From an uncultured Candidatus Saccharibacteria bacterium (GTDB lineage Bacteria > Patescibacteriota > Minisyncoccia > UBA6257 > GWB1-50-10): 64,000 nucleotides of DNA. The first letter of the stretch is position 1; the number at the start of each line of letters is the position of its first letter. Location of the stretch: the NCBI GenBank assembly GCA_964365955.1, contig CAYISA010000001.1, positions 18,607 through 82,606 of the forward strand. Reading direction: 5' to 3'. Position numbers and translations under genes: made by a program. The notes under the pieces were generated by a model. That model saw nothing but the letters and a program-made list of their open reading frames with translations, was not told the DNA's origin and did no database searches. This document shows positions 3,276 through 32,516 of this stretch, piece by piece.

Positions 3276-4724
3276 ATGAAAGGACTTGTTATGAAAAATC
3301 TATTGGTGGTATTGCTTATACTCTTCATCGCTGTCTCTATCGGCTTTTCCCAGTCCGTTACAAAAATCTGGGAGAAAAAACTGGAAGGGGACCCTAGTTC
3401 ACAGCCACGTGCAATTGTGGCGGACACAAATAACTGTGTCTATCTCGCGGATGAGTACTACAAAGATCAAAAATATTTGCGTATTCGCAAATTTTCACCC
3501 GCGGGTGCGAAACTCTGGGAATGGATTGACACAGCATCACCGGGCGCTAGAATCTACCCAAAATCCATTGCTTACTCCGTCAAAGATAACTCTATTATTG
3601 CCCCCACGACTACCGCGCTCAATAAATTAAGCGCGGATGGAGTACTGTTGTGGAAAATGCCTTATGCGGGAGGGGTTGCTTCCGTCTTCGGGGACACCAT
3701 CGTTACGCTTACACCAGGGAATATAAGCGGAACGGTTTCGTTTTTTGATCTGAATGGAAACTTTGTCCGAAGCTTTCAAACAGGAATGCTCACACTTGGA
3801 TTTATTGGAATTTCCTTCAGAGACAATTTCATTTGGGTCTCTGCAAATAGTCCGGACGGGATTATCTCAAACACAGCGGCGTATCTTGCTAAATTCACAA
3901 CCAGTGGAATATTGCTCTGGAGGTGGAACGCACCGGACGTAAGCATGTCATTCTCTGATGTAGATCAAGATGGGAACGCATACTTCGCACTTACACAATT
4001 TCGCATACTTCCGGAGCCCTTATGGGTGGAACTGGCGTACCGCCTTGTCGCATTGAATGCGGTAGGAGATGTTGTATGGGATCGCGAGTGGATTGAACAT
4101 CCGCGAGGGTTTGCGAATCAGTATAATTATACGCAAAGTATTGCCGTATCCAGCCATGATATTATCAACCGCCAAGTAGTTCTTTTAGGAATTACGGAGC
4201 GGAGTGATAGTTTGGCCGATGGTAACGCGCAATACTACGCGCGATGTTTCAAAGCAACAAACGGAGATTCGCTCTGGAAGTTACGCGGAGATTATGATCC
4301 TGCGTATAAAGTGTCCCAGTATGAAGCTGGCACATTCACTCCCGACGGAGATCTGGTAATCGCAGGCGATGGATTTCCTCCATCACTTGCAGTCACGTCT
4401 TACCTCCAGAAGTTCCATTCAACGACAACAGAGGTTCGTGAATTTCCAAATCTTCTTCCTATTGGGTTTTCCATTTCCCAAAACTATCCGAATCCCTTTA
4501 ACCCGACGACACACATAAGATTCGCGGTTCCGCGCGCAACACACGTGAAACTCGCGGTCTATGATATCTTGGGTCGAGAGGTAGAAATTTTGTGGGATGG
4601 AGAAAAATCTCCCGCAGTCTACGAGGCGGATTGGGACGCGACAAATTCTTCGAGCGGAATCTATTTTGCGCGGTTTACTACCCCTTCGGGAATAGAAACG
4701 CGCAAAATGATGCTACTGAAATAA
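3276..4724 (+). CDS. secreted beta-propeller-like protein with T9SS-type C-terminal sorting domain (Por_Secre_tail-like)
   Basis: Signal peptide MKNLLVVLLILFIAVSIGFSQ. C-terminus QNYPNPFNPTTHIRFAVPRATHVKLAVYDILGREVEILWDGEKSPAVYEADWDATNSSSGIYFARFTTPSGIETRKMMLLK matches the T9SS type-A CTD consensus. Strong hairpin/T-tract terminator follows. Confidence 0.7.
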   Translation: MKGLVMKNLLVVLLILFIAVSIGFSQSVTKIWEKKLEGDPSSQPRAIVADTNNCVYLADEYYKDQKYLRIRKFSPAGAKLWEWIDTASPGARIYPKSIAYSVKDNSIIAPTTTALNKLSADGVLLWKMPYAGGVASVFGDTIVTLTPGNISGTVSFFDLNGNFVRSFQTGMLTLGFIGISFRDNFIWVSANSPDGIISNTAAYLAKFTTSGILLWRWNAPDVSMSFSDVDQDGNAYFALTQFRILPEPLWVELAYRLVALNAVGDVVWDREWIEHPRGFANQYNYTQSIAVSSHDIINRQVVLLGITERSDSLADGNAQYYARCFKATNGDSLWKLRGDYDPAYKVSQYEAGTFTPDGDLVIAGDGFPPSLAVTSYLQKFHSTTTEVREFPNLLPIGFSISQNYPNPFNPTTHIRFAVPRATHVKLAVYDILGREVEILWDGEKSPAVYEADWDATNSSSGIYFARFTTPSGIETRKMMLLK

Positions 4725-4735
4725 AGTGGAAACAC

Positions 4736-4766
4736 AAACCCCTGCGGTATGCGGGGGTTTTTATTT
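4736..4766. terminator. rho-independent terminator hairpin (cccctgcggtatgcgggg + T-tract), serves convergent genes
   Basis: GC hairpin with T-run on + strand and A-run on the other side, between converging CDS 3276..4724(+) and 4765..8553(-). Confidence 0.6.
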
Positions 4767-7700
4767 ATCGTATAAGTTTATCGAGATTAAACCCTTCCAC
4801 GTCGTCGTTGCGCCGATTCCCGAGCGTTTCCGAATCAAACCGCGGAGCGGTCAGGCGATAACTTACTTCCCCTTCGGAAGAACCGTAGATTATGACGCGC
4901 ATCGTTACCGCATCTTTTTCGTACCATACGTTGCCGTCAAACGCGGGCGTTAAAAGGACCGTCATGCCATCAAAATGATTCGCCAAGTTTGTAACTTTCG
5001 AAAAGAGCCATAAATCCGACGCCTCTTCCGCATTTTTAAAATCCACGCTCGCGCTATAACGCCCGTCTTGTTTGGCCAAGCGCGCAACGCCCGACGTTTC
5101 TTCTTTCTGGCCCGTCATTGCGGCGCCATAGGTGGCGTAACGCTTTCCGCCGATCGTGTAAACCGGGTCCCATGTTCCGACGCTGATTTTGCCGGTACCG
5201 CCACCAAATACCGCTACCAACCCGGTGGTGGTTGTGCCAACACTAAGCAGAGCGGAAGGAGTAGTGGTTCCTATGCCAACCTTCCCGGCAAAATAAGACG
5301 CTGCGGTTGCAAGAGAATAGATTGCATAATTTCCGGCACCTGCACTAGGAGATCCTATTCGAATTCCTTGGTTAGATGTGTTGCCAAACGCGGAAAAAAT
5401 ACCTCCCACATTCGTTCCGCCAGCCCCCGTCCATGTGGATTCCCCCGAAAGACCCACCGCAAGACGCCCAGCGGCTGCTCCTCCACTATGAACCGCGCGA
5501 ACAGCGTACGTTTCCGCCGTGGACGCTTGGGTTCCTTCACTAAAATATGCCATAGCGAATCCTTGTGTTGAGTTTGTGCTCCCTACGGTAAACCGATAGC
5601 TGGAGGGTGATACTCCAATGCCGACATTCGCCCCGCGCACAAAAATAGCATCGGATGCCAGGTTTTGAATCACCAATGTTCCATCCAACCCCACACGGAA
5701 TTTTGTGGAGGTGGCGGTAGCCGTTCGGGAAAGACGCAGAACTTCATCGGTCGGAGAGGTACTCAAAACTTCCAACTTGGAACTGGGAGCTGCCACACCG
5801 ATACCCATATTACCGCTCGTATCAAAAATGGCGCGCAGGGTGGAGCTTGTATAAAACGCGATAGGAACGGTGATGCCGCCGCCTCGGATCTGCAGTTGCC
5901 CGGCCTGTCCATCCATACTTCCGCTACCCCCCATGGTTAGATGAGTTTGCCCCGAGCTATCCGATCCAATTGAAACTATGCCGCCGGTTACATTGTCGTC
6001 TACCGTAAAAATCCCCGTTCCGGGATTCCCCACAACCGCCAACTTCGCGGTTCCAGGAGTTGTTGCGCCCACAGCAACATTGTAAGAAGCAGATGTCGGA
6101 TTAAGATTATTCCCTGAAAGTGACCAAAAATTGGTCCCCCCAGTAGGAGCCGTCCATGTTGCAAGACCATTTGCGTCGGATGTTAATACCTTCCCCGACC
6201 CTTGCGTACCATCTACAATTTGAATCGCGTCGCCAAAAAATGCGGAACGCACCAAACCGCCGATCGGTACGGTGGTTGTGACATAAATCCCGTAGGATGT
6301 TGCCCCCGCGTTTGTTGCACGTCCTGGAGTTATAAAAAGCCCGTAAGAAACGGGAGTGCCGCTTCCCGAAAAAATTGCTTCTCCGCCCGCTACTTTCAGC
6401 CCATAGGAGTTTAGTCCTGTCGCACTATTTGAATTTGTTACGCCCAGTACTCCAGAGGTTCCGGTAATGTTGGAACTGATGGATGATGCGCCGCTTAAAA
6501 TTGTAATAGCGCCTGAAGAAATTGTTCCGATGTTTGAAAGATTGCGGCTGGTATCCATAAACTGCGTGCCGCTCATCTGAAGCGGTCCCGTAGCATTTAC
6601 GTTTCCTCCGTTTATTTGAAGTAAAGCGGTGCCCGTTACATTAGTTGCGTTTTGCCAAAAAGTAAAATAATTCGCTATTCCGGAACCTCCGATTCCGCTC
6701 GGCCACGAGTTCCGACATACTTCCCCGATACAGACGTTTGCCGCAAACGTGGAAGTGGCGCTCACGGTTAAATCTCCGGTCACATCAAGCGCCGTTGCGG
6801 GAGCGACCGCCGAGCCAATACGAACATCAGATGCAAAACGAACATCGGCGGGATAGAAAAGCACCGTGGGACCGCTTGCGGTTCCATTCGGATAAAACTG
6901 GATTGAACCGCTCTGTGTGGCGCCTCCGCTGAAACCCATGTAGAAGCGATCGCCTGCCACATCATGTTTCTGCACCCATTGTCCCAATGTCGGACTTGAG
7001 GTCGCAATCCAAAACGCACCGGTCACCCGCGCGTTTCCCGCTACATCAAGCGGATAAGCGGGATTTGTGTTCCCGTTGCCTGCCCCTATAAAACCATTTT
7101 TTAGCGTGAGGAGATCCGCACCCGCTACATTTACAACAAACGCGCTATCCGTTCCCTCTTTAAAAACCACAGGATTTGCCGCTGTGGAACGAAAAAGTCC
7201 GAACAGTGGATCAGCCCCACCCGCAACGGAAAACGGATAGAGCGGTGTTGTGGTTCCGAGTCCAATATTACTTCCACTGACTGCAAGCGGGGACGTTCCA
7301 GAAAGCGCTGTTGCACTTGTCCAGTATGGAATATAATTTGCGGTTCCGGCACCTGTCACCGTGCCATTGCCTTTATTGTTAAACGTTGTCCAATCCGTGA
7401 AAGAAAGATAACCATTCGTCGTTCCATTTGCTTGGCTGATGGAAATATTCGGAGTGGCGCCTCCGCTACTGGTGAGCGGGAGCGAAGCGGTCACACTTGT
7501 GACGCCTACTGTATCAATATCATTCGAACACACAATCGTTCCGGTAGAACTAAGAGAAGAAATTTTTTGTGTTCCGCCGCAGGTGCCGCCCAACATATTC
7601 AGCATAAGCGTACCCGAGGTCGTAATCGGTCCTCCACTCAAACCCGAACCGCTTCCAACACTTGTCACTGACCCGGCAGGCCACGAGTTCCGACATACTT

Positions 7701-8553
7701 CCCCGATACAGACGTTTGCCGCAAACGTGGAAGTGGCGCTCACGGTTAAATCTCCGGTCACATCAAGCGCCGTTGCGGGAGCGACCGCCGAGCCAATACG
7801 AACATCAGATGCAAAACGAACATCGGCGGGATAGAAAAGCACCGTGGGACCGCTTGCGGTTCCATTCGGATAAAACTGGATTGAACCGCTCTGTGTGGCG
7901 CCTCCGCTGAAACCCATGTAGAAGCGATCGCCTGCCACATCATGTTTCTGCACCCATTGTCCCAATGTCGGACTTGAGGTCGCAATCCAAAACGCACCGG
8001 TCACCCGCGCGTTTCCCGCTACATCAAGCGGATAAGCGGGAGCAACTGTGCCAATGCCGACATTATCCCGCACATAAGCACTTCCATAAACTGAAAATGG
8101 CTGTGGCAAACCCGTTTTAGAAGACGTCGCGACACCAAGCGACGCGGGAAATGCAAAATTGCCTCCACCTTGCAAAGATCCGAATACACCGGAGCTGACA
8201 TTATCGGCAGAAAGCGCGCCGGAGAACGCACCTAAAAATGAGTTTGCTTGTACGTTCCCGTTCACTTGTAATGCCTGCGCGGGAGCCACGGTACCAATGC
8301 CAACATTTCCATTCGGGAAGAAAAGAATATGCTGGTTGGATCCTCCGGAAGTTTGGAACAGGAGCTGGGATTGAGAAGAATACACCGTGCTCGTCCCAAT
8401 CTGTAACGCGCGCGTAGACGATGCAAAAAGAATTCCGCAGTTGCCAGTAGGCGGATTCCCACATGGGCCTTGGAACGTTTGTGCGTCTGCAACACCCACA
8501 AATAGTGCGATGGCGGCGATAGAAAAAAGAATGAGGGTTGGAAATTTATTCAT
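4765..8553 (-). CDS. giant secreted repeat protein (1262 aa), Gly/Thr/Ser-rich with repeated NVGIGT.AP..LDV.GN motifs (tail-fibre / beta-helix-like)
   Basis: Signal peptide MNKFPTLILFSIAAIALFVGVADAQ. Many degenerate repeats VGIGTxxPxxxLxVxG. Contains a perfect 362-bp internal duplication. Confidence 0.7.
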   Translation of the reverse strand: MNKFPTLILFSIAAIALFVGVADAQTFQGPCGNPPTGNCGILFASSTRALQIGTSTVYSSQSQLLFQTSGGSNQHILFFPNGNVGIGTVAPAQALQVNGNVQANSFLGAFSGALSADNVSSGVFGSLQGGGNFAFPASLGVATSSKTGLPQPFSVYGSAYVRDNVGIGTVAPAYPLDVAGNARVTGAFWIATSSPTLGQWVQKHDVAGDRFYMGFSGGATQSGSIQFYPNGTASGPTVLFYPADVRFASDVRIGSAVAPATALDVTGDLTVSATSTFAANVCIGEVCRNSWPAGSVTSVGSGSGLSGGPITTSGTLMLNMLGGTCGGTQKISSLSSTGTIVCSNDIDTVGVTSVTASLPLTSSGGATPNISISQANGTTNGYLSFTDWTTFNNKGNGTVTGAGTANYIPYWTSATALSGTSPLAVSGSNIGLGTTTPLYPFSVAGGADPLFGLFRSTAANPVVFKEGTDSAFVVNVAGADLLTLKNGFIGAGNGNTNPAYPLDVAGNARVTGAFWIATSSPTLGQWVQKHDVAGDRFYMGFSGGATQSGSIQFYPNGTASGPTVLFYPADVRFASDVRIGSAVAPATALDVTGDLTVSATSTFAANVCIGEVCRNSWPSGIGGSGIANYFTFWQNATNVTGTALLQINGGNVNATGPLQMSGTQFMDTSRNLSNIGTISSGAITILSGASSISSNITGTSGVLGVTNSNSATGLNSYGLKVAGGEAIFSGSGTPVSYGLFITPGRATNAGATSYGIYVTTTVPIGGLVRSAFFGDAIQIVDGTQGSGKVLTSDANGLATWTAPTGGTNFWSLSGNNLNPTSASYNVAVGATTPGTAKLAVVGNPGTGIFTVDDNVTGGIVSIGSDSSGQTHLTMGGSGSMDGQAGQLQIRGGGITVPIAFYTSSTLRAIFDTSGNMGIGVAAPSSKLEVLSTSPTDEVLRLSRTATATSTKFRVGLDGTLVIQNLASDAIFVRGANVGIGVSPSSYRFTVGSTNSTQGFAMAYFSEGTQASTAETYAVRAVHSGGAAAGRLAVGLSGESTWTGAGGTNVGGIFSAFGNTSNQGIRIGSPSAGAGNYAIYSLATAASYFAGKVGIGTTTPSALLSVGTTTTGLVAVFGGGTGKISVGTWDPVYTIGGKRYATYGAAMTGQKEETSGVARLAKQDGRYSASVDFKNAEEASDLWLFSKVTNLANHFDGMTVLLTPAFDGNVWYEKDAVTMRVIIYGSSEGEVSYRLTAPRFDSETLGNRRNDDVEGFNLDKLIR
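6701..7062. repeat. 362-bp perfect direct repeat, copy 1 (intragenic, inside CDS 4765..8553)
   Basis: Identical to 7679..8040. The six-frame track shows identical ORFs 6738..6932 / 7662..7910 and 6780..7019 / 7758..7997. Period 978 bp = 326 aa. Confidence 0.9.
7679..8040. repeat. 362-bp perfect direct repeat, copy 2
   Basis: Identical to 6701..7062. Encodes the ~120 aa segment NPAYPLDVAGNARVTGAFWIATSSPTLGQWVQKHDVAGDRFYMGFSGG...CIGEVCRNSWP twice in the protein. Confidence 0.9.
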
Positions 8554-17439: not shown

Positions 17440-17464
17440 CCATTTGGACGGCGTGTTTGTTCTG

Positions 17465-17497: not shown

Positions 17498-17519
17498 TAA
17501 AATGCTAAAATAAACACAT

Positions 17520-19229: not shown

Positions 19230-19235
19230 TAACTC

Positions 19236-20459: not shown

Positions 20460-20461
20460 CG

Positions 20462-21136: not shown

Positions 21137-21724
21137 TTATTCTCCCCGCGTAAAGATAGTACCTGAAAATGCCATCCGAAAATTTCCTCCCGATGGGGCA
21201 AACGACCATTGCCGAATCTGGATCGTGGTCTCCAATCCTTCCACCGCAATAAGAAAATTACTAAGCGCAGTGATGTTTCCTTCCGCTTTGGCGGAAAATT
21301 CGAATCCCCCACCTCCGGGGACAACCCCCGGGAGTTCAACACCCAGAGAAATTTCAAGCGGAAACCCGTACTGGAGCGCCAACGCCCGCACTAAAGGAAA
21401 AATCTTCGTGGGCACGTCAATGGAAAGAGGGAGGGATTTTTCGAGCTCGCCGCGCAGAGCGTTCGCAATCGGACGTTTTTTATTCAACTCCGCAATCTCG
21501 TCGAATTGTTCTAAAACGCGGGCGAATTCACCTTTCGCATTATCCGCCTGTGCCACTTCTTTTTTGATCAGCAAAGAAAGCACAACAAGCGCGACCGCAG
21601 AGAGCGTCAGAATCATTCCGAAGATCACCAGCGTAAATCCAACGCCTTGTCCGAATTTTTGTGTTCCTGGCTGTTCCGGCTTCGGTATGGTTTCTGTTTT
21701 TTTTATATTTTTTTCGTTTTCCAT
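21137..21724 (-). CDS. PilO-like pilus assembly protein
   Basis: Single N-terminal TM (FTLVIFGMILTLSAVALVVLSLLI), then a coiled-coil and a C-terminal domain. Directly downstream of the pilM-pilN fusion. Confidence 0.55.
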   Translation of the reverse strand: MENEKNIKKTETIPKPEQPGTQKFGQGVGFTLVIFGMILTLSAVALVVLSLLIKKEVAQADNAKGEFARVLEQFDEIAELNKKRPIANALRGELEKSLPLSIDVPTKIFPLVRALALQYGFPLEISLGVELPGVVPGGGGFEFSAKAEGNITALSNFLIAVEGLETTIQIRQWSFAPSGGNFRMAFSGTIFTRGE

Positions 21725-21730
21725 AGGCGA

Positions 21731-23206
21731 TTAAAGGCGTAATAATGCATTAAGAGTAAGGTTTTTTTCGGGTGCCAAGTCTGTGAGCGGGATAGAGACC
21801 TCCGTGACAATCTTTTGTGATTCCATGCGCCGCTTGAACTCCAAGATAGAATCGCGCGAAGCGGCGGTAAACACGCCTGCGATACCCTCATTCGCGGAAG
21901 AAAGACTGGTTATTCCCACTCCCGTTTCGGCGGCAATCTTAGCAATCGCTCCGATCCGCTTCCCCGCGACGGTCTGAAGATTTTTTGCTGCTCGAAACGC
22001 ATCCACTAGCGCGTTAAATTTTTGCGCCTCATCGATCACTGGTTGGGACTGTGGAACCAATCGTTCAAAAATAGCACTTTGATTTCGAATATCGCGATTT
22101 AATGTGGCATTTTGATATTTTAAAAACGCAAACATGCCCGCAAATGCCAGCAAAAAGGAAAATGTATAGACAAAGAGAATTTTTATCCAGAGATTCAGCG
22201 TACGCAGAGAAAGGTTTTCCTGATATCGCCCTCCGAACTCCGACGGAATGAGATTAATCGAAATGTCCGCCGCCGCATAAGGCCGGAATGCGGCGCCATG
22301 GGCGATTAAAAGACGAGGATCGGAATACGCGGGCCGCGAATCCGGAAGAAACGGTTGTGTCGGAATACCGGTAATGGTACGAATAGAAGAGATAACACCC
22401 TCGCGGTTCACGCGGTCAAAAACAAAAATGCGCTCGATAGAAAATTTCAGGTTCGACTCAACAAAACTGGTGAGCTGGCGAATTTTTCCTTCCAACACTT
22501 TAGTGGCTTCTTCTTCGCCCGCGACCGGATGCAAAAAATGTGCCACAACCACACCCTTAAAAAACACAGCGAACTCGATTCCGTCTTCGTCAATTAAGGC
22601 GAAAATAAACGATGGCACACTTGCCTGATCCACAAACTTCGCAAGACTCAAAATGTGGAACTCTATTGCCCCCACTCTCCATCGCTCACCGGAAGTAATC
22701 TGTAGGTAATTCCGGATGGTTTTCTTGTTCACCGCTACGATAAAAACAATATGTTCCTCTTTCTCCGGAATATAAGTTGATGTCCAATCGATATGGGCGT
22801 CTTCGATCGGCCACGGAAGAGAAGCTTCGGCTTTTAGCATGACGGCATTTTTAAGTTCTTCCGCATCCATTTCCGGGAACACTACCGTTTCGGTGTACAT
22901 CTTGTGGGAAGGAATCGAAAGAACGAATACCGGCTCCACGGTAAATTTAAAATGTCGGGCGGGAACGGTTCCTAAGAGCGCTTTAATACCCGTCCGTACC
23001 GGAACAGGGTCCGAAATTTCTCCGTGCTCGATGGATGCCTCCGGGACGTCGTAGATACCCGAAGAGAGGACGGAAATTTTATCGCCGTGCCGAAGCGTTG
23101 CAACACCCGCAATGTGCTTGTCCTGAATATCCAACCCCACCAACACAAATTTGGGAAACACCAACCGTGAAATTTTTCTTAGTATTTTTTCAAGCGCTTC
23201 TTTCAT
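21731..23206 (-). CDS. PilM-PilN fusion protein
   Basis: N-terminal actin-like ATPase fold (VGLDIQDKHIAGV...) of ~330 aa, then a TM helix (LWIKILFVYTFSFLLAFAGMFAFL) and a PilN-like periplasmic tail. 491 aa. Confidence 0.7.
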   Translation of the reverse strand: MKEALEKILRKISRLVFPKFVLVGLDIQDKHIAGVATLRHGDKISVLSSGIYDVPEASIEHGEISDPVPVRTGIKALLGTVPARHFKFTVEPVFVLSIPSHKMYTETVVFPEMDAEELKNAVMLKAEASLPWPIEDAHIDWTSTYIPEKEEHIVFIVAVNKKTIRNYLQITSGERWRVGAIEFHILSLAKFVDQASVPSFIFALIDEDGIEFAVFFKGVVVAHFLHPVAGEEEATKVLEGKIRQLTSFVESNLKFSIERIFVFDRVNREGVISSIRTITGIPTQPFLPDSRPAYSDPRLLIAHGAAFRPYAAADISINLIPSEFGGRYQENLSLRTLNLWIKILFVYTFSFLLAFAGMFAFLKYQNATLNRDIRNQSAIFERLVPQSQPVIDEAQKFNALVDAFRAAKNLQTVAGKRIGAIAKIAAETGVGITSLSSANEGIAGVFTAASRDSILEFKRRMESQKIVTEVSIPLTDLAPEKNLTLNALLRL

Positions 23207-23208
23207 GT

Positions 23209-23601
23209 CTACTGGTTGTTTTTTGAAATAGTTGTGATGACCCCATTGCTATCGATTGTTATGGACGCACGCAACGAACGTTTAATCGTCCCCAAGGGTT
23301 TCGCTACGGTAGAGGTTGCCACCACAACAACCGGGTTTCCCTGCGTTACCGAGATATCGGTCGTGGAACCGTCCGACTCTGTAAGCGTATAACTTCCAGC
23401 GTAATCTTTATTACGCGCGAGCTTCAGTGTTGCGTCTTGTATACCCGTTTCCGCAAGCGCCTGTGCTACTTCTGCCGTTCGTTCTGAAAATCCTGTAAAT
23501 ACCGAGGTGCCGCTTTGGATGCCCATTAAGATGCTTACGCTCAAAAGAAAAAGCGTGATAACAAGAACGGTGGCAAGCGATACGATGCCGCGATTCTTCA
23601 T
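23209..23601 (-). CDS. pilus-associated minor pilin-like protein (PilX/GspK-like, tentative)
   Basis: N-terminal hydrophobic anchor GIVSLATVLVITLFLLSVSILMGI, small Thr-rich body. Start overlaps the stop of the upstream pseudopilin by 4 nt. Confidence 0.45.
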   Translation of the reverse strand: MKNRGIVSLATVLVITLFLLSVSILMGIQSGTSVFTGFSERTAEVAQALAETGIQDATLKLARNKDYAGSYTLTESDGSTTDISVTQGNPVVVVATSTVAKPLGTIKRSLRASITIDSNGVITTISKNNQ

Positions 23602-24095
23602 AGGGAAAGCGCTGCTGTCTCCAATGTGTAGAGCGATTTTGTATCAGCGGCGCTCCCTTCATTATACCCTCCCGTGATGCGGATTTGAACGGATGAGGTC
23701 GCAGTTCCTTGGGAACTGGTGTTGTTAAGTTTTGTAAAAGAAAGTGCGGTTACATAAATTGTGGAAGGAGTGACGGCGACAGCTGTACCGGTCCCTTCCT
23801 GCATCATCAGAGCTCCGCTTGCAAGCGAAAACACCGTGGGATTTTTGGTACTGTCGGACATCTTAAGATTCAGCGTCGTCGAGGCACCGTTGATATCCGT
23901 CGCCGTATAAACCTTATCAACCATCTGTTGTAATGCCTGCTGCACTCCGCTTTGCGCTTCCGTTAACCGATTGGTGGTGTCTTTGGTGCGAAGCGCAAAA
24001 TCGAACACGGTGGCGCCGAGGGTCGCGACAATCGCAAAGATGACGATATAAATCATCATTTCAATCAGCGTAAATCCCGATCGCTTATTTTGCAT
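23598..24095 (-). CDS. pseudopilin (PilW/GspJ-like)
   Basis: KRSGFTLIEMMIYIVIFAIVATLG class III signal. 165 aa. Confidence 0.75.
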   Translation of the reverse strand: MQNKRSGFTLIEMMIYIVIFAIVATLGATVFDFALRTKDTTNRLTEAQSGVQQALQQMVDKVYTATDINGASTTLNLKMSDSTKNPTVFSLASGALMMQEGTGTAVAVTPSTIYVTALSFTKLNNTSSQGTATSSVQIRITGGYNEGSAADTKSLYTLETAALSL

Positions 24096-27000
24096 AATTT
24101 AAAATAATATCCGTGACCGTGGGTGTTGTGGAACTGCTTGTGGTCTCTAAAAACACCTTGTACCGAATATACCGCTTGTTCTGCTGACACACTGCTTTTA
24201 GTTCCACCGCGGTGTTGGGTTCGCTGGTGCCGGTCGGCGGATAATAGGAATTCGAATCGCAGGCGACGGATGGGTTATTCGAACCTGATCCATTCCATGC
24301 GGTATAGGTCCACGGACTCGATGTGGTATCCGACCCCGCAAACTGGAATTTTACCGTTGTGTTGGTTGGGCGCGTCCCCTGCCAGGTAATGGAGTTCGGC
24401 GCCGTGCCGCTTGCCACCGCCGTATCGTAAATAACGGAGGTGAGTGATGAAGAAGTGGCGTACCCCTGCGAAACCGTTAATGTCGTCACGCTTGCCGCGG
24501 TGCTGGTGGGACCATTTCCGTAACTATTCACTCCCATCACTTTATACCAGTAGGTTGTGCTTTGGGTAAGCCCCGTATCGGTGGAAGATGTAATCGTGGT
24601 CGAGGCCACTAGAACATAGATTCCTCCGGAGCTTGTTGAACGGAAAAGATTGTACGAAGTCGTGCTGGATGCCGCGGTCCAGTTTACCACCACGGAAACG
24701 CCCGTTACATACGGAAATGTTGGCGTTCCCGGAGTTCCCGGAAGCGGCCAGATCCAACAACTATTCCCTCCGCTATCCAAAGAATCATCTGTCACGGAGA
24801 TACTTCCGCTTCCGCACGCGTCTGAATCTTTAACGTCCGTCGACGAAACAATTTTGGCGCCCGCAACCGTTAACAACCACGGTGATCCCGCAGAAGAACT
24901 CCTTACCCCAACCCGCGATGTGGTCGCCTGTCCGTTCCAATTTAAGCTATTAAAAGTGTACGTACTACCCGCGTTGAAACGCACGGTGGTAGATGCGGTC
25001 ACAATCGTGGATGTCGCAACGGTCGTTGCGTCAGCCGTCAAGCGGATTGCCGGAGCCGCAAGTGTTCCGGAATTGTTCGAAAATGCAAGATGATTGAACG
25101 CGGAAGTTCCTACCTCCATCGGTCCCATGCTCCCTGTAAGCGTTTGTGCGGACGTTCCGTTGAATGTCACCTGCCCGCTATTGTGCGTAAAGGTGCCATT
25201 ATTCGTGTAATTACCTCCTATTGAAATAGTCCTGACAGCGTTCGCCTTGAATGTGGAACTTGTGGCGATAAGCATCGCGCCCGTCACACTGATCGTTGTA
25301 TTATTCGGACTTGCGTCTACTACTCCCGTATGCGTTCCGTCTCCTGCCGTAAGTTGCCCCCCGACAATAAAAGTACCAGCCGCAAATTGATGCGCGGAAG
25401 TACTGCTCGGCATAACATCTAGATTGTAATAGGTAGCGACGGTAATCGTTGTGACAGCAGCGCCGTTATATTTTACCTTTCCTGTACCTGCGGAAAACGC
25501 CAAACTCACGGGCGATTCGTTGATCACAAAAGGTGTGCCGCTTGAAGCAAAGGTAATAGTGTAGCTCGATCCAGCAAGCGTATTAGTGCCGTTTGAAGAA
25601 TCATTGATAGTGAGAATGTTGTTGACCGTCGTGTCGCCGGAAAATGTATATGTGGTCGTGGCGGTCGACGTTCCGACCTGTAAATTGTAGTAGGGGTTTG
25701 CTGTAACCATCGTGCTTGTCGTTTGGCCTGCATATACAACCGTGCTCGTGCCCGCTTGGAACGTGATTGTGTCCGATACAACCATCGGCGTCCCCGTACC
25801 AGAAAATTGTATTGTGCGGCCGCGTGCGTAAATATCGGCGCTCGGATTCATCGTCCATACTTTTTTCACGACAAGATTTCCAGTCCCGCCGCTTCCAAGA
25901 TATAACCTACTCCCTGCTTCATGATTGCCTCCGCAACTGGCACACGTGGTAGTTAAATTATTGAACGTCCAATCATTCGAGCCGCTTGTGGTGCCGAGTG
26001 TTCCACCCGTGGTATAAAACGTTACCGTGTGATCTACATTGGTTAAATTCACCGTACCACAGGTAGCTCCACAGGTGATAGAACTGGTTGTGGCATTCCC
26101 TATTAATTGAATATTCGCGCTTCCGTTTGAATTATCCAGCGTCCCATTCGCGACCAGAAGCGAATCAATCACTGCGGTCGAAGTTGCAAAGCTCCATCCG
26201 CCCCCCGACCCGTTGAACACCACGGTTGGAAGACTTACTTGAAAGCCCGCCGCAAGCGCTCCCGCGTTGATCATGTGCCCTGTTGAGGTGGCACCAAACG
26301 TCACGGTGCCGGTGCTCGCGCCTCCCTGTCCGTTGTTCAAATAATCGCTATTGAACGCAAAGGTTCCTCCTCCCGCAAAGGTAGCGGTTCCGGTTGCCAC
26401 TGTAAAAAGATTATTGACGGTGGAAGGACTTTGAAGCGCGAATACTTCGCTTGCATTATTCAGCGTCAGTTTATAATAGGTGGTTGAAGCCACTAATGTA
26501 TTCCCCACAGTATAATTTCCGGTAAATTGTACGGTGGAGGTCACAGCATTAAAAGTTCCGGAGAGTAAAAATGGCGTGGCTACATTCCCGACATTCGAGA
26601 GCGTCCATGTCTTTCCGCCCGCCGAAAACGTATGCCCCGCAGAAACAGTAAGCACACCGCTCACTGTCATCGCGCCCGCGCCTGTTGATGTGGTCGTCTG
26701 CGAGGAACCGTTTACGGTAAGGCTGGAAAAAGTCCAGTTGGTTGCACCACCTAAACTTCCGGCGCCGCTGATCGTTGCTGTCCCCCCCGTAAGTGTGACA
26801 GTTCCTGCACCGGTGATATCGCCTCCATTCACGGTAAAATTTGAGGTCCCCGCAAGCGTTCCGGCCGTCACGGTAACATCATTTGAAACCGTTGCGGCAC
26901 CTCCCAGCGTGTACGTTGCGGTACCGTTGGTGTCCAAATTCCAATAGGTTGCGGCAGTGATCGTTGTTGCGGAAGATCCACGATAACTGAACGTAGAACT

Positions 27001-29652
27001 TCCGGGAGTTGACGTCGCTCCGGTCGGGGCAATCACAAACGGCGTTCCTGACCCCAATAAATAAATTGATCCCGTTCCGCCATTTAACGTATTGGTGCCG
27101 GTCGTGGAGCTTGCAACGGTTATCGTGTTTTGGATGGTAGAATATCCGCCGGTTCCAACTCGCAACGTATAGGTAGTACTTCCGGTAGATGTTCCTACAA
27201 AAAGATCCCAATAGGTTGCGGCACCGATATTCGTACTGGTAGTGATTCCGATGTAGCGGACGGTGCTGCTTGCCGCATTAAAGACTCCGGGGTTTGGAAT
27301 CTCTCCACCCGGATATCCCTGGACCACGAAGGGAGACCCCGTGCCGGTTACGGTAATCGTCTTCGTAGAAGTCGCACTTAACGTTGCGCTTCCGCCGCCT
27401 CCGCTTGTCATGGTGATACTCGTCGCTACGATATCGCTATTCAATTGAACCGTATAGGGAGTGGATCCGTTTGTATTAATACTGATAATCCCTAAATCTT
27501 GGAGCGCCGGATTGCTGTCTTGTAATGTTTTGGTACCGCCTGGACTTAAGGTGATCGTCCCGGTTCCTTTTGTGTAGGTGAGTTGGTTGGTTCCACAAAC
27601 ACTCGTACAATCTCCGACGATAAAATTCCCCTTCACCGTGATGCTCGGATTATACGATGATGCGTCTACAGTTGCCGCGGCATCACGAAATAATCTAAAA
27701 TCACCGTTCACTGTAATTGTCTGGCCCGTTGTTGTAGCTAAATAATAAATATTTGTACTCTGGGGTTTTAAAGACAAATTAAAATAACTTGTCGCGGGGA
27801 TATCCGTAGAACCATTTCCGCTAAAAGCAACGGTGCCTGTTGTTGATGGAAGAGCCCCATAGCTTGTGATCTGAAGGGGCGTACTAATAATTCTTCCAAT
27901 CCCCGAAATCGTAAGTGTATAAGGCCCGGGTGAAAATGTATCAGTCGCACTTGAACCGGAGTTCCCAATTGTGACTCGATTTGTAACCGTTGTATCGCCT
28001 CCCAAGGTATATGTAACCGCTGAAGCATCTGCGCTTACACCAACTTGGAGGCCGTAATAAGCATCCGAAACAGCGATTGTGGTGGCGGTTGTCGCTGTAT
28101 AACTGACAGTCCCTGTTCCTCCACTTAGTGTTCCCTTGCTTGTAATTACAAAAGGCGTCCCCGAACTCGAAAGTGTAAGCGTGGCAATACTTAAGGCAAG
28201 CGTATCGGAGTTTCCCGAACCGGCATTCCCAACCGTCACGACACCTGCGGCAGTTGCGTTCCCGCCTAACGTAAAAGTGACCGCCGACGAGTCAGCTGTC
28301 GTCCCAACTCCAAAATTATAGTACGCGACCGCGGCAAGCGTGACAGAAGACGTGGCGGTGTAGTTAATCGTACTGGTACCGATTGTGAACGTGCCCGAAA
28401 CACAAAATGGTATCACGGTGTTCAATGCGCCCGTGCACGTGGCGGATGTCCCCGGGCGATTGAGTGTTATAGTATTCCCGTCGGGGGTAAACGTTCCAAT
28501 GACATACAGGGCACCCACGTTCACCGCTCCGCCGGGTTGGAATGTTTTCCCAGAAGCCACAATCACTTTCGCGGATGTTGCATTCAACACCCCTCCTGAA
28601 ACCGTAAAGGGAATATCCGTATCACTCACACTGTCATACGTTCCGACATTCGCATTAGTGATAGGTCCGGAGTCCTCATGCCGCAAAATCACGCGCCCCC
28701 TATAGACATCAATTCCGCTTAAATTCGTTCCTGAATAACGCGTTACGGTCGCGCCCACCCGCGTGGCACTTCCGTTGTCCATATAGACAGTGATCACGGT
28801 GCTTGTCGAGGGCTGTGTCATAGTAACGGTGTAGGTTCCTGGTGCTCCCGCGCTTGTAGAAGACGCCACACTCCCCCCTACTACCACTTTAACCGTGGAA
28901 GATGTCGCTGTAACCCCTTCGTCTTGATAAATCGTACCCGCAATTGTGATCGAAATCGCCGGTGGCGTGTAGGTAATTGTTGCATACACTTTAGAGAGTT
29001 GGACGTAAATTGAGTTCGAGTAAGAGCCACCGTCTCCATCATCGCAGGTTCCGTCGTCCGGGATCGTAAGCCCCACCTCAAGCGTTGAGGTGGTTCCTTT
29101 TACATAACTAATGGAGTGCGACTGGGTACTTGATGTAAATGTATCCGTCATCGTGATCGCGCTTCCGAAATCTGTCGAGGCGCCGTCCAAAACCCGGACG
29201 GATTTTGCAGTCGGATAAACGCTAATGGTCGGAGCGCTTCCCCCCGCACAAACGGAGTACTCATCAATTGCCGCATTTGCCGAAAACGTAATATCGATCG
29301 CGGTAATTGTGGAACCGACCGGAATATTGGTCCAGTCCGTTGTTGATGTAGAGAGTTTAAATGTCTGCCGCGTATTAATGATCTTACTAAAAACCGTAGT
29401 CGTATCATTGTTGTCGTTCACTTTTATATAGCAAACATTCGCGCTGCAATCCTTCAGTGGGAGTATCTGGTATGCCCACGATGCCGAGTCGTTGGTACCA
29501 TCCGCTACAGGATGGATCGCACCCGTTGTTGTTCCGTGCGCAATATACGGAATACCGCCCAAAAAAAGAAAAATGGCGGCGACAAAAAAAAATGTTCTCC
29601 GCGTTGAAGTTGCAAGCATTTTAAAGATTATAGCACACTTTTTATCCTTCAT
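24085..29652 (-). CDS. giant surface protein (1855 aa) encoded in the pilus operon; putative pilus-associated adhesin with FN3-like domain and conserved C-terminal module
   Basis: N-terminal signal/TM (FFFVAAIFLFLGGIPYIAHG). Extreme Thr/Ser/Gly content. FN3-like segment (PGTPGTPTFPYVTGVSVVVNWTAAS...YWYKVMGVNSYGNGP). C-terminus NKRYIRYKVFLETTSSSTTPTVTDIILNYAK is homologous to the C-terminus of CDS 9116..10117. The gene start overlaps the stop of pseudopilin 23598..24095 by 11 nt (24085-24095). Confidence 0.75.
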   Translation of the reverse strand: MKDKKCAIIFKMLATSTRRTFFFVAAIFLFLGGIPYIAHGTTTGAIHPVADGTNDSASWAYQILPLKDCSANVCYIKVNDNNDTTTVFSKIINTRQTFKLSTSTTDWTNIPVGSTITAIDITFSANAAIDEYSVCAGGSAPTISVYPTAKSVRVLDGASTDFGSAITMTDTFTSSTQSHSISYVKGTTSTLEVGLTIPDDGTCDDGDGGSYSNSIYVQLSKVYATITYTPPAISITIAGTIYQDEGVTATSSTVKVVVGGSVASSTSAGAPGTYTVTMTQPSTSTVITVYMDNGSATRVGATVTRYSGTNLSGIDVYRGRVILRHEDSGPITNANVGTYDSVSDTDIPFTVSGGVLNATSAKVIVASGKTFQPGGAVNVGALYVIGTFTPDGNTITLNRPGTSATCTGALNTVIPFCVSGTFTIGTSTINYTATSSVTLAAVAYYNFGVGTTADSSAVTFTLGGNATAAGVVTVGNAGSGNSDTLALSIATLTLSSSGTPFVITSKGTLSGGTGTVSYTATTATTIAVSDAYYGLQVGVSADASAVTYTLGGDTTVTNRVTIGNSGSSATDTFSPGPYTLTISGIGRIISTPLQITSYGALPSTTGTVAFSGNGSTDIPATSYFNLSLKPQSTNIYYLATTTGQTITVNGDFRLFRDAAATVDASSYNPSITVKGNFIVGDCTSVCGTNQLTYTKGTGTITLSPGGTKTLQDSNPALQDLGIISINTNGSTPYTVQLNSDIVATSITMTSGGGGSATLSATSTKTITVTGTGSPFVVQGYPGGEIPNPGVFNAASSTVRYIGITTSTNIGAATYWDLFVGTSTGSTTYTLRVGTGGYSTIQNTITVASSTTGTNTLNGGTGSIYLLGSGTPFVIAPTGATSTPGSSTFSYRGSSATTITAATYWNLDTNGTATYTLGGAATVSNDVTVTAGTLAGTSNFTVNGGDITGAGTVTLTGGTATISGAGSLGGATNWTFSSLTVNGSSQTTTSTGAGAMTVSGVLTVSAGHTFSAGGKTWTLSNVGNVATPFLLSGTFNAVTSTVQFTGNYTVGNTLVASTTYYKLTLNNASEVFALQSPSTVNNLFTVATGTATFAGGGTFAFNSDYLNNGQGGASTGTVTFGATSTGHMINAGALAAGFQVSLPTVVFNGSGGGWSFATSTAVIDSLLVANGTLDNSNGSANIQLIGNATTSSITCGATCGTVNLTNVDHTVTFYTTGGTLGTTSGSNDWTFNNLTTTCASCGGNHEAGSRLYLGSGGTGNLVVKKVWTMNPSADIYARGRTIQFSGTGTPMVVSDTITFQAGTSTVVYAGQTTSTMVTANPYYNLQVGTSTATTTYTFSGDTTVNNILTINDSSNGTNTLAGSSYTITFASSGTPFVINESPVSLAFSAGTGKVKYNGAAVTTITVATYYNLDVMPSSTSAHQFAAGTFIVGGQLTAGDGTHTGVVDASPNNTTISVTGAMLIATSSTFKANAVRTISIGGNYTNNGTFTHNSGQVTFNGTSAQTLTGSMGPMEVGTSAFNHLAFSNNSGTLAAPAIRLTADATTVATSTIVTASTTVRFNAGSTYTFNSLNWNGQATTSRVGVRSSSAGSPWLLTVAGAKIVSSTDVKDSDACGSGSISVTDDSLDSGGNSCWIWPLPGTPGTPTFPYVTGVSVVVNWTAASSTTSYNLFRSTSSGGIYVLVASTTITSSTDTGLTQSTTYWYKVMGVNSYGNGPTSTAASVTTLTVSQGYATSSSLTSVIYDTAVASGTAPNSITWQGTRPTNTTVKFQFAGSDTTSSPWTYTAWNGSGSNNPSVACDSNSYYPPTGTSEPNTAVELKAVCQQNKRYIRYKVFLETTSSSTTPTVTDIILNYAK

Positions 29653-29664
29653 TTTTAATGATTT

Positions 29665-29693
29665 TTGACATTTTGCCAGTGATAGTGGATAAT
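29665..29693 (+). promoter_or_regulatory. sigma70-like promoter candidate (TTGACA-17 nt-GATAAT) upstream of the BNR/T9SS-CTD gene
   Basis: TTGACA at 29665-29670, 17-nt spacer, GATAAT at 29688-29693. GAAAGGGG Shine-Dalgarno-like sequence before the ATG at 29757. Confidence 0.5.
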
Positions 29694-29756
29694 CTCATCA
29701 GCTAATTTCAAACTAAATAACTGATGTACCACTAATTAAAGAAAGGGGCGTTTAAT

Positions 29757-32516
29757 ATGAAACGCTTTGTTGTTTTTCTTGCTGGTTTGTTTTTCCTTAC
29801 ATCCCTTGTCGCAACCGGCCAATCGTTTGTTCCGACGCAAGGACCGTACGGAAAAGATGTGTTTTCGATTGCTCGCGGAACTGGCGGCCGCATATTTGCA
29901 GGAGCGGAAGATAATCTGTACCGTTTCCGCGATACCGCATGGGCCAATGTTCTTGTTTACAATGACCTCCCGGTTATCTCCAACACCAAACCGATGGCAA
30001 GTTTGAACGGAGAAGTTATTGTTTATGCAAGTTCTCGGTTCATGTCGTATCGAACTTTATATGTGTCAAAAGATGGCGGTGCCACATGGAATACAGAATT
30101 CGCGAGCGGATTCCCGGACGGTCCCCCCCCTTTGACGTGCCTTGCGTTTAACATAGAAGGGCAACTATTTACAGGGACACTAAGACGAGCATTTGCCGAT
30201 ACTGCCGTTGGTGGCGGCATCTGGCGATCACTTGATACTGCGAAGACATGGGAACGAGTCCGTGATACTACAAGCGGTCTAGGGCTTGATACTATTTCCG
30301 TCTATTCACTTACGGTTCGTGGAAACACGATCTTTGTGGGTGCGCAAAGCGGGATCTTTCTCTCAACCGATGCCGGCGCTACCTGGACGCATCATTTTTC
30401 TGATGTGTTTCCGGGGCATATTTATTCCGTTGCGATTGATAGTTCCGGGGACCTCTTCTTGAGCACGGATTATAATTACGGCAACGGAGAAGATATCTAC
30501 CGTTCCACCGACAACGGGACAACCTGGACGGGAATGGGACTAGGCGCTCACACGACCGTGCTTGCCGTGCATCCAAATGGCACTGTTTTTGGCGGTTCGC
30601 GTGAAAACCTCGGCGTTCTTCGATCCACAAACAATGGCATCACATGGGACGCCTCAAATCCGGCTATCGGGAACACCGCCGCAGGTGTACCAAAAATTGC
30701 ATCCATCGAATTCGGCGAGGACGGCAGTGTCTATGTAGGCGCTTTGCTCGATGGAGTATTCCGCTCAACGGATAATGGAACGACATGGAAACAGATAGGA
30801 ATTCCGGCGCAAACCTCTATGGTGGCGATTCCGGACACAGTTGCTCCGCCTCCTCTGATAAGCAAGCTTTTTACGGAATCGGTCTATCTTGATTCCGTTC
30901 CAAGCGCACTTCTTGCAGTCGCAAAAGGGTATCCCTATCAATCTGTCGATGGTGTTCGCTGGGAACGGTTTGAACTTCCTGGTTTCTCTGGATTTGTACA
31001 AACCGCAATCGTTTCACCAGGAAATTCATTTATGGCAACTCTTGGTGGAGGCATTTTCCGGTCACTGGATGGCGGATACACATGGGAACGATTAATATCT
31101 TTCCCAGCGCCAACTCAAAGAATTTATGCCATGGCAATGAGTCATGGGAATAAATTATTTGCAAGCGGTGATTTTGCTGAAGGATTGTATCGTTCTAGTG
31201 ATTTTGGAAATACGTGGGAACAGGTTTATCCATTAGTTGGATTAATTACTTCACTTGCTACGTCCCCACTCAATGATTCTTTAATCTTCGCTGGGGCGGA
31301 TGGAGTTCATCGAAGTACCGATGGTGGAACTTCGTGGGAACTGACTGGCCTTTCGGGCATCGGAATCACATCGCTCTCGGTTGACGCGGGTGGCATGGTC
31401 TACGCCGGAAATCAGGATGGCATCTATCGCTCAACCAACAACGGTACTACCTGGGAACCCCCAAGTGCGGAGTCGAGAGCACTGCGCGGAGTTCAAGGTG
31501 TAGGACCGACGAACGTGCTCTCGATTGCAAGCAAACACGTAAGTGTCTTTGCGGGAACCGAAACGTCGGGACTATATCTTTCCACGGATCAGGGAACTGG
31601 ATGGGAACCGATTAATGCGGGGCTCACCAGTTCCAAAATCCCTTCCGTTACGATCACGCGACGCGGTTATGTTTTTGCCGCAACTGACAAAGGCGTTTTC
31701 CGTTCTCTGTCACCGATTGCGGTAGCAGAGTACACATACGCGCTAACGGACGGATGGAATATGGTTTCACTTCCCGTGCGTCCAGACGATTCCCGGAAGA
31801 CATCGGTCTTCCCGTCGGCACAGTCCAAAGCGTTTGCCTATGACGGCGGTTATAACACCGAAGACGTTATGCAACGTGGCTCCGGCTATTGGGTAAAACA
31901 TCCAAGCGCAGGCATTGCTATATTAGGCACTCCGGTGGAACGTGAAACGGTGAGCGTAAGACAGGGCTGGAACATGATCGGCTCAATTACATCGCCTGTT
32001 CCCGTTGCAACCATCGGAAGCATCCCCGGTGGACTCGTCGTCTCGAATTTCTATGGGTGGAAGGGTGTCTCTCAAGTCTACGACACAGCAGACACCATCG
32101 GCCCCGGAAAAGCGTACTGGGTTAGAGCGTCGGCAAACGGCAAGTTGATACTTGCAAAAACGCCAGCAGCACAACCCTTCGCAATCGTGATTGTGCCCAC
32201 AGACGAAGCTCCGCCGCCACCTCCGGGATATAACGGAAAAGATATTCCAAAGAGCTTCATGCTTTATGGAAACTATCCAAATCCTTGGAACCCAACAACG
32301 GTGATCAAATTTGATCTCCCAGAAAATGCATCCGTGACTTTAAAAGTCTGGAATGTGTTGGGACAGGAAGTTCTGAAGGTGATGGACCATGTTCCGTATG
32401 AAGCGGGTCGCTATGAAATCACACTTCATTCCGACGAGCTGCCGAGTGGCATCTATTTCTACACGCTTCAGGCGGGAAATCATCTTGCAACCAAAAAGAT
32501 GATCCTTCTGAAGTAA
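29757..32516 (+). CDS. secreted BNR/Asp-box repeat (sialidase/Ycf48-like beta-propeller) protein with T9SS-type C-terminal sorting domain
   Basis: Signal peptide MKRFVVFLAGLFFLTSLVATGQS. At least eight S-x-D-x-G-x-T-W Asp-box motifs (STDAGATW, STDNGTTW, SLDGGYTW, STDGGTSW...). C-terminus NYPNPWNPTTVIKFDLPENASVTLKVWNVLGQEVLKV...SGIYFYTLQAGNHLATKKMILLK is a T9SS CTD. Confidence 0.8.
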   Translation: MKRFVVFLAGLFFLTSLVATGQSFVPTQGPYGKDVFSIARGTGGRIFAGAEDNLYRFRDTAWANVLVYNDLPVISNTKPMASLNGEVIVYASSRFMSYRTLYVSKDGGATWNTEFASGFPDGPPPLTCLAFNIEGQLFTGTLRRAFADTAVGGGIWRSLDTAKTWERVRDTTSGLGLDTISVYSLTVRGNTIFVGAQSGIFLSTDAGATWTHHFSDVFPGHIYSVAIDSSGDLFLSTDYNYGNGEDIYRSTDNGTTWTGMGLGAHTTVLAVHPNGTVFGGSRENLGVLRSTNNGITWDASNPAIGNTAAGVPKIASIEFGEDGSVYVGALLDGVFRSTDNGTTWKQIGIPAQTSMVAIPDTVAPPPLISKLFTESVYLDSVPSALLAVAKGYPYQSVDGVRWERFELPGFSGFVQTAIVSPGNSFMATLGGGIFRSLDGGYTWERLISFPAPTQRIYAMAMSHGNKLFASGDFAEGLYRSSDFGNTWEQVYPLVGLITSLATSPLNDSLIFAGADGVHRSTDGGTSWELTGLSGIGITSLSVDAGGMVYAGNQDGIYRSTNNGTTWEPPSAESRALRGVQGVGPTNVLSIASKHVSVFAGTETSGLYLSTDQGTGWEPINAGLTSSKIPSVTITRRGYVFAATDKGVFRSLSPIAVAEYTYALTDGWNMVSLPVRPDDSRKTSVFPSAQSKAFAYDGGYNTEDVMQRGSGYWVKHPSAGIAILGTPVERETVSVRQGWNMIGSITSPVPVATIGSIPGGLVVSNFYGWKGVSQVYDTADTIGPGKAYWVRASANGKLILAKTPAAQPFAIVIVPTDEAPPPPPGYNGKDIPKSFMLYGNYPNPWNPTTVIKFDLPENASVTLKVWNVLGQEVLKVMDHVPYEAGRYEITLHSDELPSGIYFYTLQAGNHLATKKMILLK

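Follow-up and report, generated by a model that had tools for sequence, protein, structure and literature searches.

Type A T9SS C-terminal domains on two propeller proteins of a Paceibacteria-type groundwater bacterium

Two propeller proteins with a C-terminal T9SS domain

Two genes ending in a type IX secretion system (T9SS) C-terminal domain (CTD) of type A are located in a 64-kb window, the whole stretch of DNA analyzed here; it belongs to a contig of 98,429 bp from Hainich groundwater (well H43, 0.1 µm filter fraction). An earlier note on this DNA had claimed that the coding sequences 3276..4724 and 29757..32516 carry such domains in a genome that otherwise looks monoderm. Both open reading frames (ORFs) are present at exactly these coordinates. 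CTD gene 1 (3276..4724, + strand; 482 aa, NCBI MEK7465491.1) encodes a signal-like N-terminus, a propeller, a linker and the CTD, and CTD gene 2 (29757..32516, + strand; 919 aa, NCBI MEK7465188.1) encodes a signal-like N-terminus, a propeller region, a linker and the CTD. The NCBI Prokaryotic Genome Annotation Pipeline (PGAP) already names both products 'T9SS type A sorting domain-containing protein'.

Profile hidden Markov models (HMMs) confirmed the two CTDs with matches above curated cut-offs. PF18962 (Por_Secre_tail; gathering threshold 27 bits) gave 34.2 bits for protein 1 and 36.8 bits for protein 2, and TIGR04183 (cut-off 23 bits) gave 43.9 bits (E 1.7e-11) and 39.8 bits (E 3.4e-10), respectively. 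The matches span residues 404-479 of 482 in protein 1 and 840-916 of 919 in protein 2, and end 3 residues before the stop codon. The C-terminus of protein 1 reads ...NYPNPFNPTTHIRF...SGIYFARF...TRKMMLLK and that of protein 2 ...NYPNPWNPTTVIKF...SGIYFYTL...TKKMILLK. The CTD of protein 1 (aa 396-482), modeled as a seven-strand beta-sandwich, is encoded at 4461..4721 (+ strand), and the CTD of protein 2, which contains the TIGR04183 and PF18962 matches at residues 840-916, at 32247..32513 (+ strand). A six-frame HMM and regular-expression scan found no CTD copies in the window besides these two.

Protein 1 consists of a seven-bladed beta-propeller (approximately aa 28-382), a disordered linker (aa 386-405) and the type A CTD. 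Its AlphaFold2 (AF2) model, with a predicted local distance difference test score (pLDDT) of 87.3, shows the seven-bladed propeller, the disordered linker and a seven-strand sandwich, with an N-terminal helix lying apart from the fold. Foldseek searches with the full-length model matched CylK and WD40 propellers, with PorZ (5m11) at rank 7. A CTD-only model (pLDDT 88.5) also has seven strands, and its matches included the T9SS CTDs 8glk_D, 5m11 (rank 12), 8gl6_D and 8gl8_D amid generic Ig-like domains. A search of the PDB with the single CTD sequence found no match, and a profile was required: one built only from CTDs of the host clade described below matched 8glj_D, a Flavobacterium johnsoniae translocon CTD (E 6.5e-5), as well as 8glk_D, and gave a weak signal to FlgD (3osv, E 0.69).

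Protein 2 contains tandem BNR/Sortilin-Vps10 (Ycf48/GH74-like) propellers, a conserved domain at approximately aa 655-815, a Pro-rich linker and the type A CTD. The passenger scored 84.7 bits with PF15902 (gathering threshold 33) and 59.2 bits with PF02012, and PDB sequence matches were to Ycf48-like proteins and to GH74 xyloglucanase. The equivalog model NF045728 scored 165.2, below its cut-off of 175, and no specific enzymatic function was therefore assigned to protein 2.

The Sec signal peptides proposed in the earlier note are supported by a hydropathy check, in which both N-termini show a Lys/Arg-containing n-region and, after it, a hydrophobic segment some 19 residues long. Since orthologs of protein 1 begin in the alignment at Met6, the true start of CTD gene 1 is probably at position 3291. 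Neither protein has an LPXTG-type motif or a C-terminal transmembrane helix, and the window contains no sortase gene. Protein 1 falls in a 90%-identity cluster represented by a 56-aa sequence; the 56-aa members of this cluster occur on up to 33 contigs, are unrelated to protein 1 in sequence and look like a clustering artifact of the protein collection.

Host, inheritance and origin of the genes

The contig was placed using housekeeping proteins. DnaB shares 50-55% identity with genomes of the Candidate Phyla Radiation (CPR)/Patescibacteria and at most 43% with other phyla. RpoD, encoded on the same contig outside the window, is 77-87% identical to proteins of Paceibacterota, Jorgensenbacteria, Brennerbacteria, Parcubacteria and Patescibacteria, which account for all named top matches. 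The metagenome-assembled genome is labeled 'Patescibacteria group bacterium' by NCBI. According to the contig names, coverage was 21 in the assembly of the 0.1 µm fraction and 8 in that of the 0.2 µm fraction, and the source study reported an enrichment of Paceibacteria at 0.1 µm (PMC8672522). By these markers, the host is an ultra-small Paceibacteria/Parcubacteria-type CPR bacterium, and this placement is robust. Published work describes Patescibacteria as monoderm (PMC11665869; bioRxiv 10.1101/2025.01.22.634366). The paradox seen earlier, of canonical T9SS CTDs in a monoderm-looking genome, is thus real, as the host belongs to the CPR and its phylum is described as monoderm. On phylogenetic placement, and with about 95 kb of genome inspected (the 64-kb window and about 31 kb of flanks), it is very unlikely that the host has an outer membrane.

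The gene content of the contig was examined for the same question. No T9SS, BAM, Lpt, Lpx, Tol or secretin genes were found in the roughly 95 kb, and the window, as had been claimed, contains neither a T9SS core gene nor a gene for outer-membrane biogenesis. The two type IV pilus systems that had been reported to lack secretins lie at approximately 16774-29652 and 52660-63572, and no secretin is encoded in either. Cluster A (16774..24095) contains pilin-like genes, PilB, PilC and a PilM-like gene, and cluster B (52660..63572, - strand) contains PilM, PilB, PilT, PilC, two pilins, PilD and minor pilin-like genes, followed by LigA. Together, the clusters encode two PilB, one PilT, two PilC, one PilD, two PilM and several N_methyl pilins.

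Orthologs of the CTD genes were found in conserved gene order in other genomes, four for gene 1 (L080, L090, L091 and L093) and one for gene 2 (L092). In the window, gene 1 is divergent from a gene for an uncharacterized exported or membrane-anchored protein of 527 aa (hyp527; 1605..3188, - strand), its conserved partner, and is followed by a gene for a giant exported protein of 1262 aa (4765..8553, - strand), its conserved downstream neighbor. L080 and L090 keep the order AlaRS-RpoD-DnaG-acyltransferase-LTD protein-hyp527-CTD gene-giant protein, the orthologs of the 1262-aa protein (48-77% identity) being likewise placed. On the Rifle aquifer scaffold L091, a hyp527 homolog and a CTD gene lie beside ClpP (82%) and TyrRS (56%), and a second CTD protein is encoded too; in L093 the hyp527-CTD pair occurs again in a different context. 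Across these syntenic relatives, the protein 1 ortholog is 31-47% identical overall (47% in L080, 32-35% in L090); the housekeeping proteins of L080 and L090 are 91% (RpoD) and 71-72% (DnaG) identical to those of the source contig. For gene 2, L092 encodes a full-length ortholog (P0138, 38.5% identity) beside an ortholog (35-41%) of the giant protein of 1855 aa that is the divergent neighbor of gene 2 at the end of pilus cluster A (24085..29652, - strand), in the same divergent orientation. A full-length relative of protein 2 with 31% identity was also found on an NCBI Patescibacteria contig, L082, which additionally encodes a transketolase split into two genes, and pentose-phosphate and GAPDH genes. 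The conserved synteny in diverged relatives shows that both CTD genes have been inherited vertically within a CPR clade over a long time.

This bears directly on whether the CTD genes are foreign, mis-joined or newly arrived, which the earlier note had raised as recent horizontal acquisition or as a chimeric contig. Neither was borne out. Independent assemblies of different samples, from ENA and from Logan, agree at 100% identity over both genes and their junctions, and the same junctions recur in several of them, which rules out chimeric assembly or contamination. In the comparison with neighboring genes, GC content (0.463 for gene 1 and 0.501 for gene 2, against a window mean of 0.484 +/- 0.026), GC content at third codon positions (about 1 standard deviation low) and relative synonymous codon usage distances (0.082-0.083, against a range of 0.048-0.090 for genes of at least 400 aa) were all within the range of the neighbors, and both genes are ordinary in this respect. 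Recent horizontal transfer is rejected on this ordinary composition together with the synteny kept in diverged relatives, of which the synteny carries the most weight. Two observations might have favored a recent import, namely the two tRNA genes directly downstream of gene 2, as tRNA genes are classic integration sites, and the somewhat lower 4-mer similarity of both CTD genes to the window (0.69-0.70); the low 4-mer value, however, is common to other surface-protein genes.

Thousands of Ignavibacteria, KSB1 and Bacteroidota-type proteins share 50-60% identity with the CTDs, taxonomy being known for a minority of the database homologs, and many have the same architecture of an SBBP-like or BNR/Sortilin propeller followed by a CTD. 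Three further loci with CTD genes lack synteny to the window and were therefore treated as comparators of the Fibrobacteres-Chlorobi-Bacteroidetes (FCB) type and not counted as CPR: L081, a 1.41-Mb contig on which 25 kb hold six CTD genes together with an Omp85-like gene, and L083 and L094, with several CTD genes each. A scan of 75 further CPR loci obtained via DnaB, about 1.1 Mb in total, found no CTD, and the trait is therefore not CPR-wide. The FCB origin suggested earlier is thus supported as the ultimate source of the genes, but the suggested recency is not, as the transfer is old. We infer that the likeliest history is an ancient transfer of whole propeller-CTD genes from Ignavibacteria-like or other FCB bacteria into one CPR lineage. 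Outside close orthologs, CPR CTDs are 37-61% identical to one another and 56-71% identical to their best other CTD; because they are as near to FCB CTDs as to each other, one acquisition cannot be separated from several, and at 80-90 residues the CTD is too short for a reliable tree.

We then compared the state of the CTDs in the CPR clade with that of CTDs elsewhere. TIGR04183 scores were 29-50 bits for CPR CTDs and 27-47 bits for FCB comparators. At deep divergence from protein 1, identity was 0.48-0.58 in the CTD and 0.25-0.29 in the passenger propeller. Column-wise entropy in nine CPR CTDs correlated with that in 219 other CTDs (Spearman rho = 0.85), and the motifs YPNP.NP..T.I.F, LG.E, SG.YF and K-M-x-L-x-[KR] are conserved in the CPR set. 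These results show that the CPR CTDs are true, conserved homologs of the type A T9SS CTD and, as far as can be judged from their sequences, they are not decaying.

Other features surround the two genes. The strong intrinsic terminators and the consensus-like promoter that had been predicted were both found: terminator-like hairpins with a T-tract lie 3' of gene 1 (4736..4760, + strand; 11 pairs, 6 GC) and of gene 2 (32529..32557, + strand; 12 pairs, 7 GC), and a sigma-70-like match (TTGACA-17-GATAAT, 11/12 positions) lies upstream of gene 2 at 29665..29693 (+ strand). On one side, gene 2 is flanked by two tRNA genes of the - strand, tRNA-Ala(cgc) (32622-32693) and tRNA-Pro(cgg) (32954-33026), and on the other by the pilus-cluster giant. 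An ORF of 182 aa directly after gene 2 (32517-33065) overlaps both tRNA genes on the opposite strand and was rejected as spurious. Hyp527 homologs (31-52% identity) lie directly upstream of the gene 1 ortholog in L080, L090, L091 and L093, so that hyp527 and a propeller-CTD gene form a divergent pair in five organisms, even with differing wider context. The hyp527 family comprises 990 representative clusters at E <= 0.001, 343 at E <= 1e-10 and 107 at E <= 1e-30; the C-terminal part of the protein is Cys-rich, and searches of Pfam, NCBIfam, PHROG and the PDB gave no match. Likewise, the 1262-aa and 1855-aa giants and the ORFs 8557-9102 and 9116-10117 have no match in Pfam, NCBIfam or PHROGs. 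The gene for the 1855-aa giant overlaps a pilin-like gene (23598-24095), and its product shares a near-identical C-terminus, ...RY[IV][RK]YKV.L......TTP.[IV]TDIILN[YW].., with a 333-aa exported protein (9116-10117, + strand). This common C-terminal module is distinct from the T9SS CTD and was not found in the other loci compared.

Elsewhere, the window contains a diversity-generating retroelement (DGR; 44080-47746) next to tRNA-Asp (43842-43918). The DGR comprises a reverse transcriptase (RVT_1, 354 aa; 44080-45144, - strand), a template repeat (45452-45574) and variable repeats at 45913-46035 and 46840-46962 inside the paralogous ORFs 45905-46615 and 46832-47746 (both - strand), with 17/18 and 13/15 mismatches at template adenines. 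Adjoining genes for NlpC/P60 (152 aa) and Peptidase_C39-like (173 aa) proteins at 42839-43815, between tRNA genes, may encode cell-wall or host-envelope hydrolases or processing enzymes. PheT (39132-41138, - strand; 668 aa) lacks the N-terminal domain, its alignment to TIGR00472 starting at position 159 of the model. The flanks of about 31 kb encode DnaG, RpoD, AlaRS, TyrRS, ClpP, a VirD4-like coupling protein, two more large proteins and ComF. AlaRS is just 595 aa long (17580-19367 on L085, the source contig), and the short PheT and AlaRS are consistent with CPR-style gene reduction. Adjoining AlaRS, about 16.6 kb beyond window position 1, is a gene (L085 19755-21584) for a VirD4/TraG-like coupling protein of type IV secretion systems (TrwB_AAD_bind, T4SS-DNA_transf), which fits reports that monoderm-type type IV secretion systems are widespread in CPR. 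Content typical of CPR thus includes the two secretin-less pilus clusters, this coupling protein, the DGR and the unannotated giant proteins.

Possible roles of the domain in CPR cells

Three explanations had been put forward in the earlier note: that the CTD is used differently in this organism, that the genes are recent imports, or that the organism has an outer membrane. Because recent import is unsupported and an outer membrane very unlikely, different use of the CTD is the best supported of the three. We therefore favor, with confidence only a little better than even, a T9SS-independent role in which the CTD acts as a folded C-terminal Ig-like module that retains the protein at the cell surface or mediates interactions there. 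The propeller-CTD genes would have been acquired anciently from FCB bacteria and would now be part of conserved surface-protein loci, gene 1 being paired with hyp527 and a giant protein and gene 2 abutting the giant of the type IV pilus cluster. Since CPR cells are described as monoderm, Sec export alone would suffice to put both proteins outside the cell, and the CTD would not be an outer-membrane translocation signal in cis. The CTD, carried on a flexible or Pro-rich linker, may then mediate surface retention or interaction with a partner in the cell's own envelope, among neighboring proteins or on a host surface; candidate partners include hyp527, the giant proteins and the pilus cluster. 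The propellers (SBBP-like in protein 1, Ycf48/GH74-like BNR in protein 2) could plausibly serve as glycan- or protein-binding heads, which fits an adhesin-rich epibiotic CPR lifestyle.

The conserved type A motifs have been reported to specify the fold of the domain and not contacts to SprA or PorV (Lauber et al. 2024, PMC10994853). As the motifs conserved in the CPR CTDs are those that determine the beta-sandwich, the domain has most likely been kept as a folded module, and the conservation pattern is largely what fold constraint predicts. We infer both the binding or anchoring role of the CTD and the lack of a T9SS and an outer membrane in the rest of the genome.

Several points weigh against this explanation. 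A possible exception among the conserved motifs is a functionally important Lys, almost invariant and close to the C-terminus, which is thought to be relevant to transport rather than folding (PMC10994853). This Lys is present in 8/9 CPR CTDs compared with 91% of the 219 others, and the CPR CTDs show no drift from the FCB consensus; the retained Lys and the lack of drift hint at more than fold constraint. The beta-sandwich is also a generic fold, and the top Foldseek matches of the CTD were macroglobulin and GbpA domains. Beyond the inspected 95 kb, the presumed absence of T9SS, BAM and LPS genes is drawn from phylum-level knowledge, and L092 and L093 were assigned to CPR by synteny and homology to the source contig only.

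The retained Lys and the undrifted consensus would be expected if the tag were addressed to another cell's machinery. CPR bacteria live as obligate episymbionts for which adhesins and pili are essential, and an epibiont living on an FCB host could present CTD-bearing propellers to be recognized by the PorV shuttle or the PorU/PorZ complex of that host, and so become docked or covalently attached. In line with such mimicry, the CTDs are close to the FCB consensus, with a best non-CPR identity (56-71%) above that among CPR paralogs (37-61%), they share the constraint profile and HMM scores of genuine cargo, gene 2 is linked to the pilus cluster in two genomes, and the source aquifer shows co-occurrence of Patescibacteria and Bacteroidota (PMC8672522). 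However, co-occurrence in well H43 itself is mostly with Verrucomicrobiota (PMC8672522), the conserved motifs are accounted for by fold constraints (PMC10994853), the solved complexes engage the CTD during export from the periplasm and not from outside, and the lack of CTDs in about 1.1 Mb of other CPR loci indicates that this is no general CPR strategy. We regard mimicry of this kind as unlikely, and the more specific proposal, that an episymbiont clade has kept its CTDs because FCB host machinery (PorV, PorU/PorZ) captures and possibly ligates the tagged propellers, as improbable. If true, it would mean host-specific and host-catalyzed anchoring or recognition, and the CTD would predict the host phylum of CPR genomes for which no host is known.

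Alternatively, the CTD may have no function and simply persist, not yet decayed, from the transferred FCB genes. The machinery on which the known function of the CTD depends is described as missing from the organism, and the domain is a small, stable fold. This is nevertheless unlikely, as a full-length CTD is present in every ortholog although the passenger has fallen to 25-30% identity, CTD conservation equals or exceeds that of the propeller, HMM scores are undiminished, and streamlined CPR genomes should lose useless domains.

That the proteins are ordinary T9SS cargo, in an organism or clade that has an outer membrane after all, with its T9SS genes elsewhere in the genome, would agree with the fully canonical CTDs, and most of the genome does lie outside the 95 kb inspected. 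It is highly improbable given the robust placement in a phylum described as monoderm, the absence of secretins from both pilus clusters, the absence of any BAM, Lpt, Lpx, Tol or T9SS gene in the inspected sequence, and the contrast with the FCB locus L081, where Omp85 and six CTD genes lie within 25 kb. Recent acquisition, or an artifact of assembly or binning, is effectively refuted by the identical junctions, ordinary composition and conserved synteny described above.

These observations bear on several fields. In diderm FCB bacteria, a type A CTD is taken as the signature of T9SS secretion and used to predict it; here it is inherited stably and under constraint in a lineage described as lacking both the T9SS and an outer membrane. 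Automatic CTD-based labels and secretome predictors are misleading outside T9SS-bearing genomes. For T9SS biology, the clade offers a natural experiment that could separate the features of the CTD needed for folding from those needed for recognition. For CPR biology, in which adhesin display and host recognition are a central question, the CTD proteins, hyp527 and the link to the pilus cluster are concrete candidates.

Comparison with known surface and secretion modules

Several modules used at monoderm cell surfaces offer a possible functional parallel. The CTD may work like LPXTG/sortase signals, SLH and other cell-wall-binding modules, as a C-terminal module on a linker keeping a Sec-exported protein at the surface; these modules have no sequence or structural relationship to the CPR CTDs. 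The FlgD Ig-like domain (PF13860) and generic Ig-like and macroglobulin modules have a related fold and structural or binding roles without a T9SS, and weak sequence signals connect the former to the CTDs (3osv; NF005176 in an FCB relative), with many homologs annotated as PF13860. The CPR domains, in contrast, match the T9SS type A model far better and are strictly C-terminal with the T9SS-type terminal motif.

PorZ of Porphyromonas gingivalis (5M11) also combines beta-propellers with a C-terminal T9SS CTD, and was a structural match to both the full-length and the CTD-only models of protein 1. It retains its CTD uncleaved and acts as a surface-located binding component. Unlike the CPR proteins, PorZ has two propellers and belongs to the attachment complex of a diderm T9SS, and it shares only 11-18% identity, with no sign of orthology.

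The closest counterparts are type A CTD cargo proteins of FCB bacteria, such as RemZ and NucA of F. johnsoniae (PDB 8GLJ/8GLK/8GL8) and the 'YCF48-related' and SBBP propellers of Ignavibacteria. These share a Sec-type N-terminus, passenger, linker and CTD of about 80 aa, the motifs YPNPFNP..T.I.F, LG.EV, SGIYFY and T-K-K-M-x-L-x-K, the seven-strand sandwich, and BNR/Sortilin and SBBP-like propeller passengers, and their HMM scores are indistinguishable from those of the CPR domains. The CPR genes differ in that they sit in a genome of the Patescibacteria, a phylum described as monoderm, with no T9SS, outer-membrane or secretin gene nearby, and in CPR-specific loci with hyp527, giant proteins and a secretin-less type IV pilus cluster. 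The known route of such cargo, by outer-membrane translocation, PorU cleavage and attachment to anionic lipopolysaccharide (A-LPS), would not operate in cis. We found no relevant paper in the searched literature linking T9SS or its CTD to CPR or Patescibacteria. The domain, the cargo architecture and the PGAP labels of both proteins were already known; what appears to be new is that a CPR clade described as monoderm inherits type A CTD cargo genes stably and under constraint, in loci specific to CPR.

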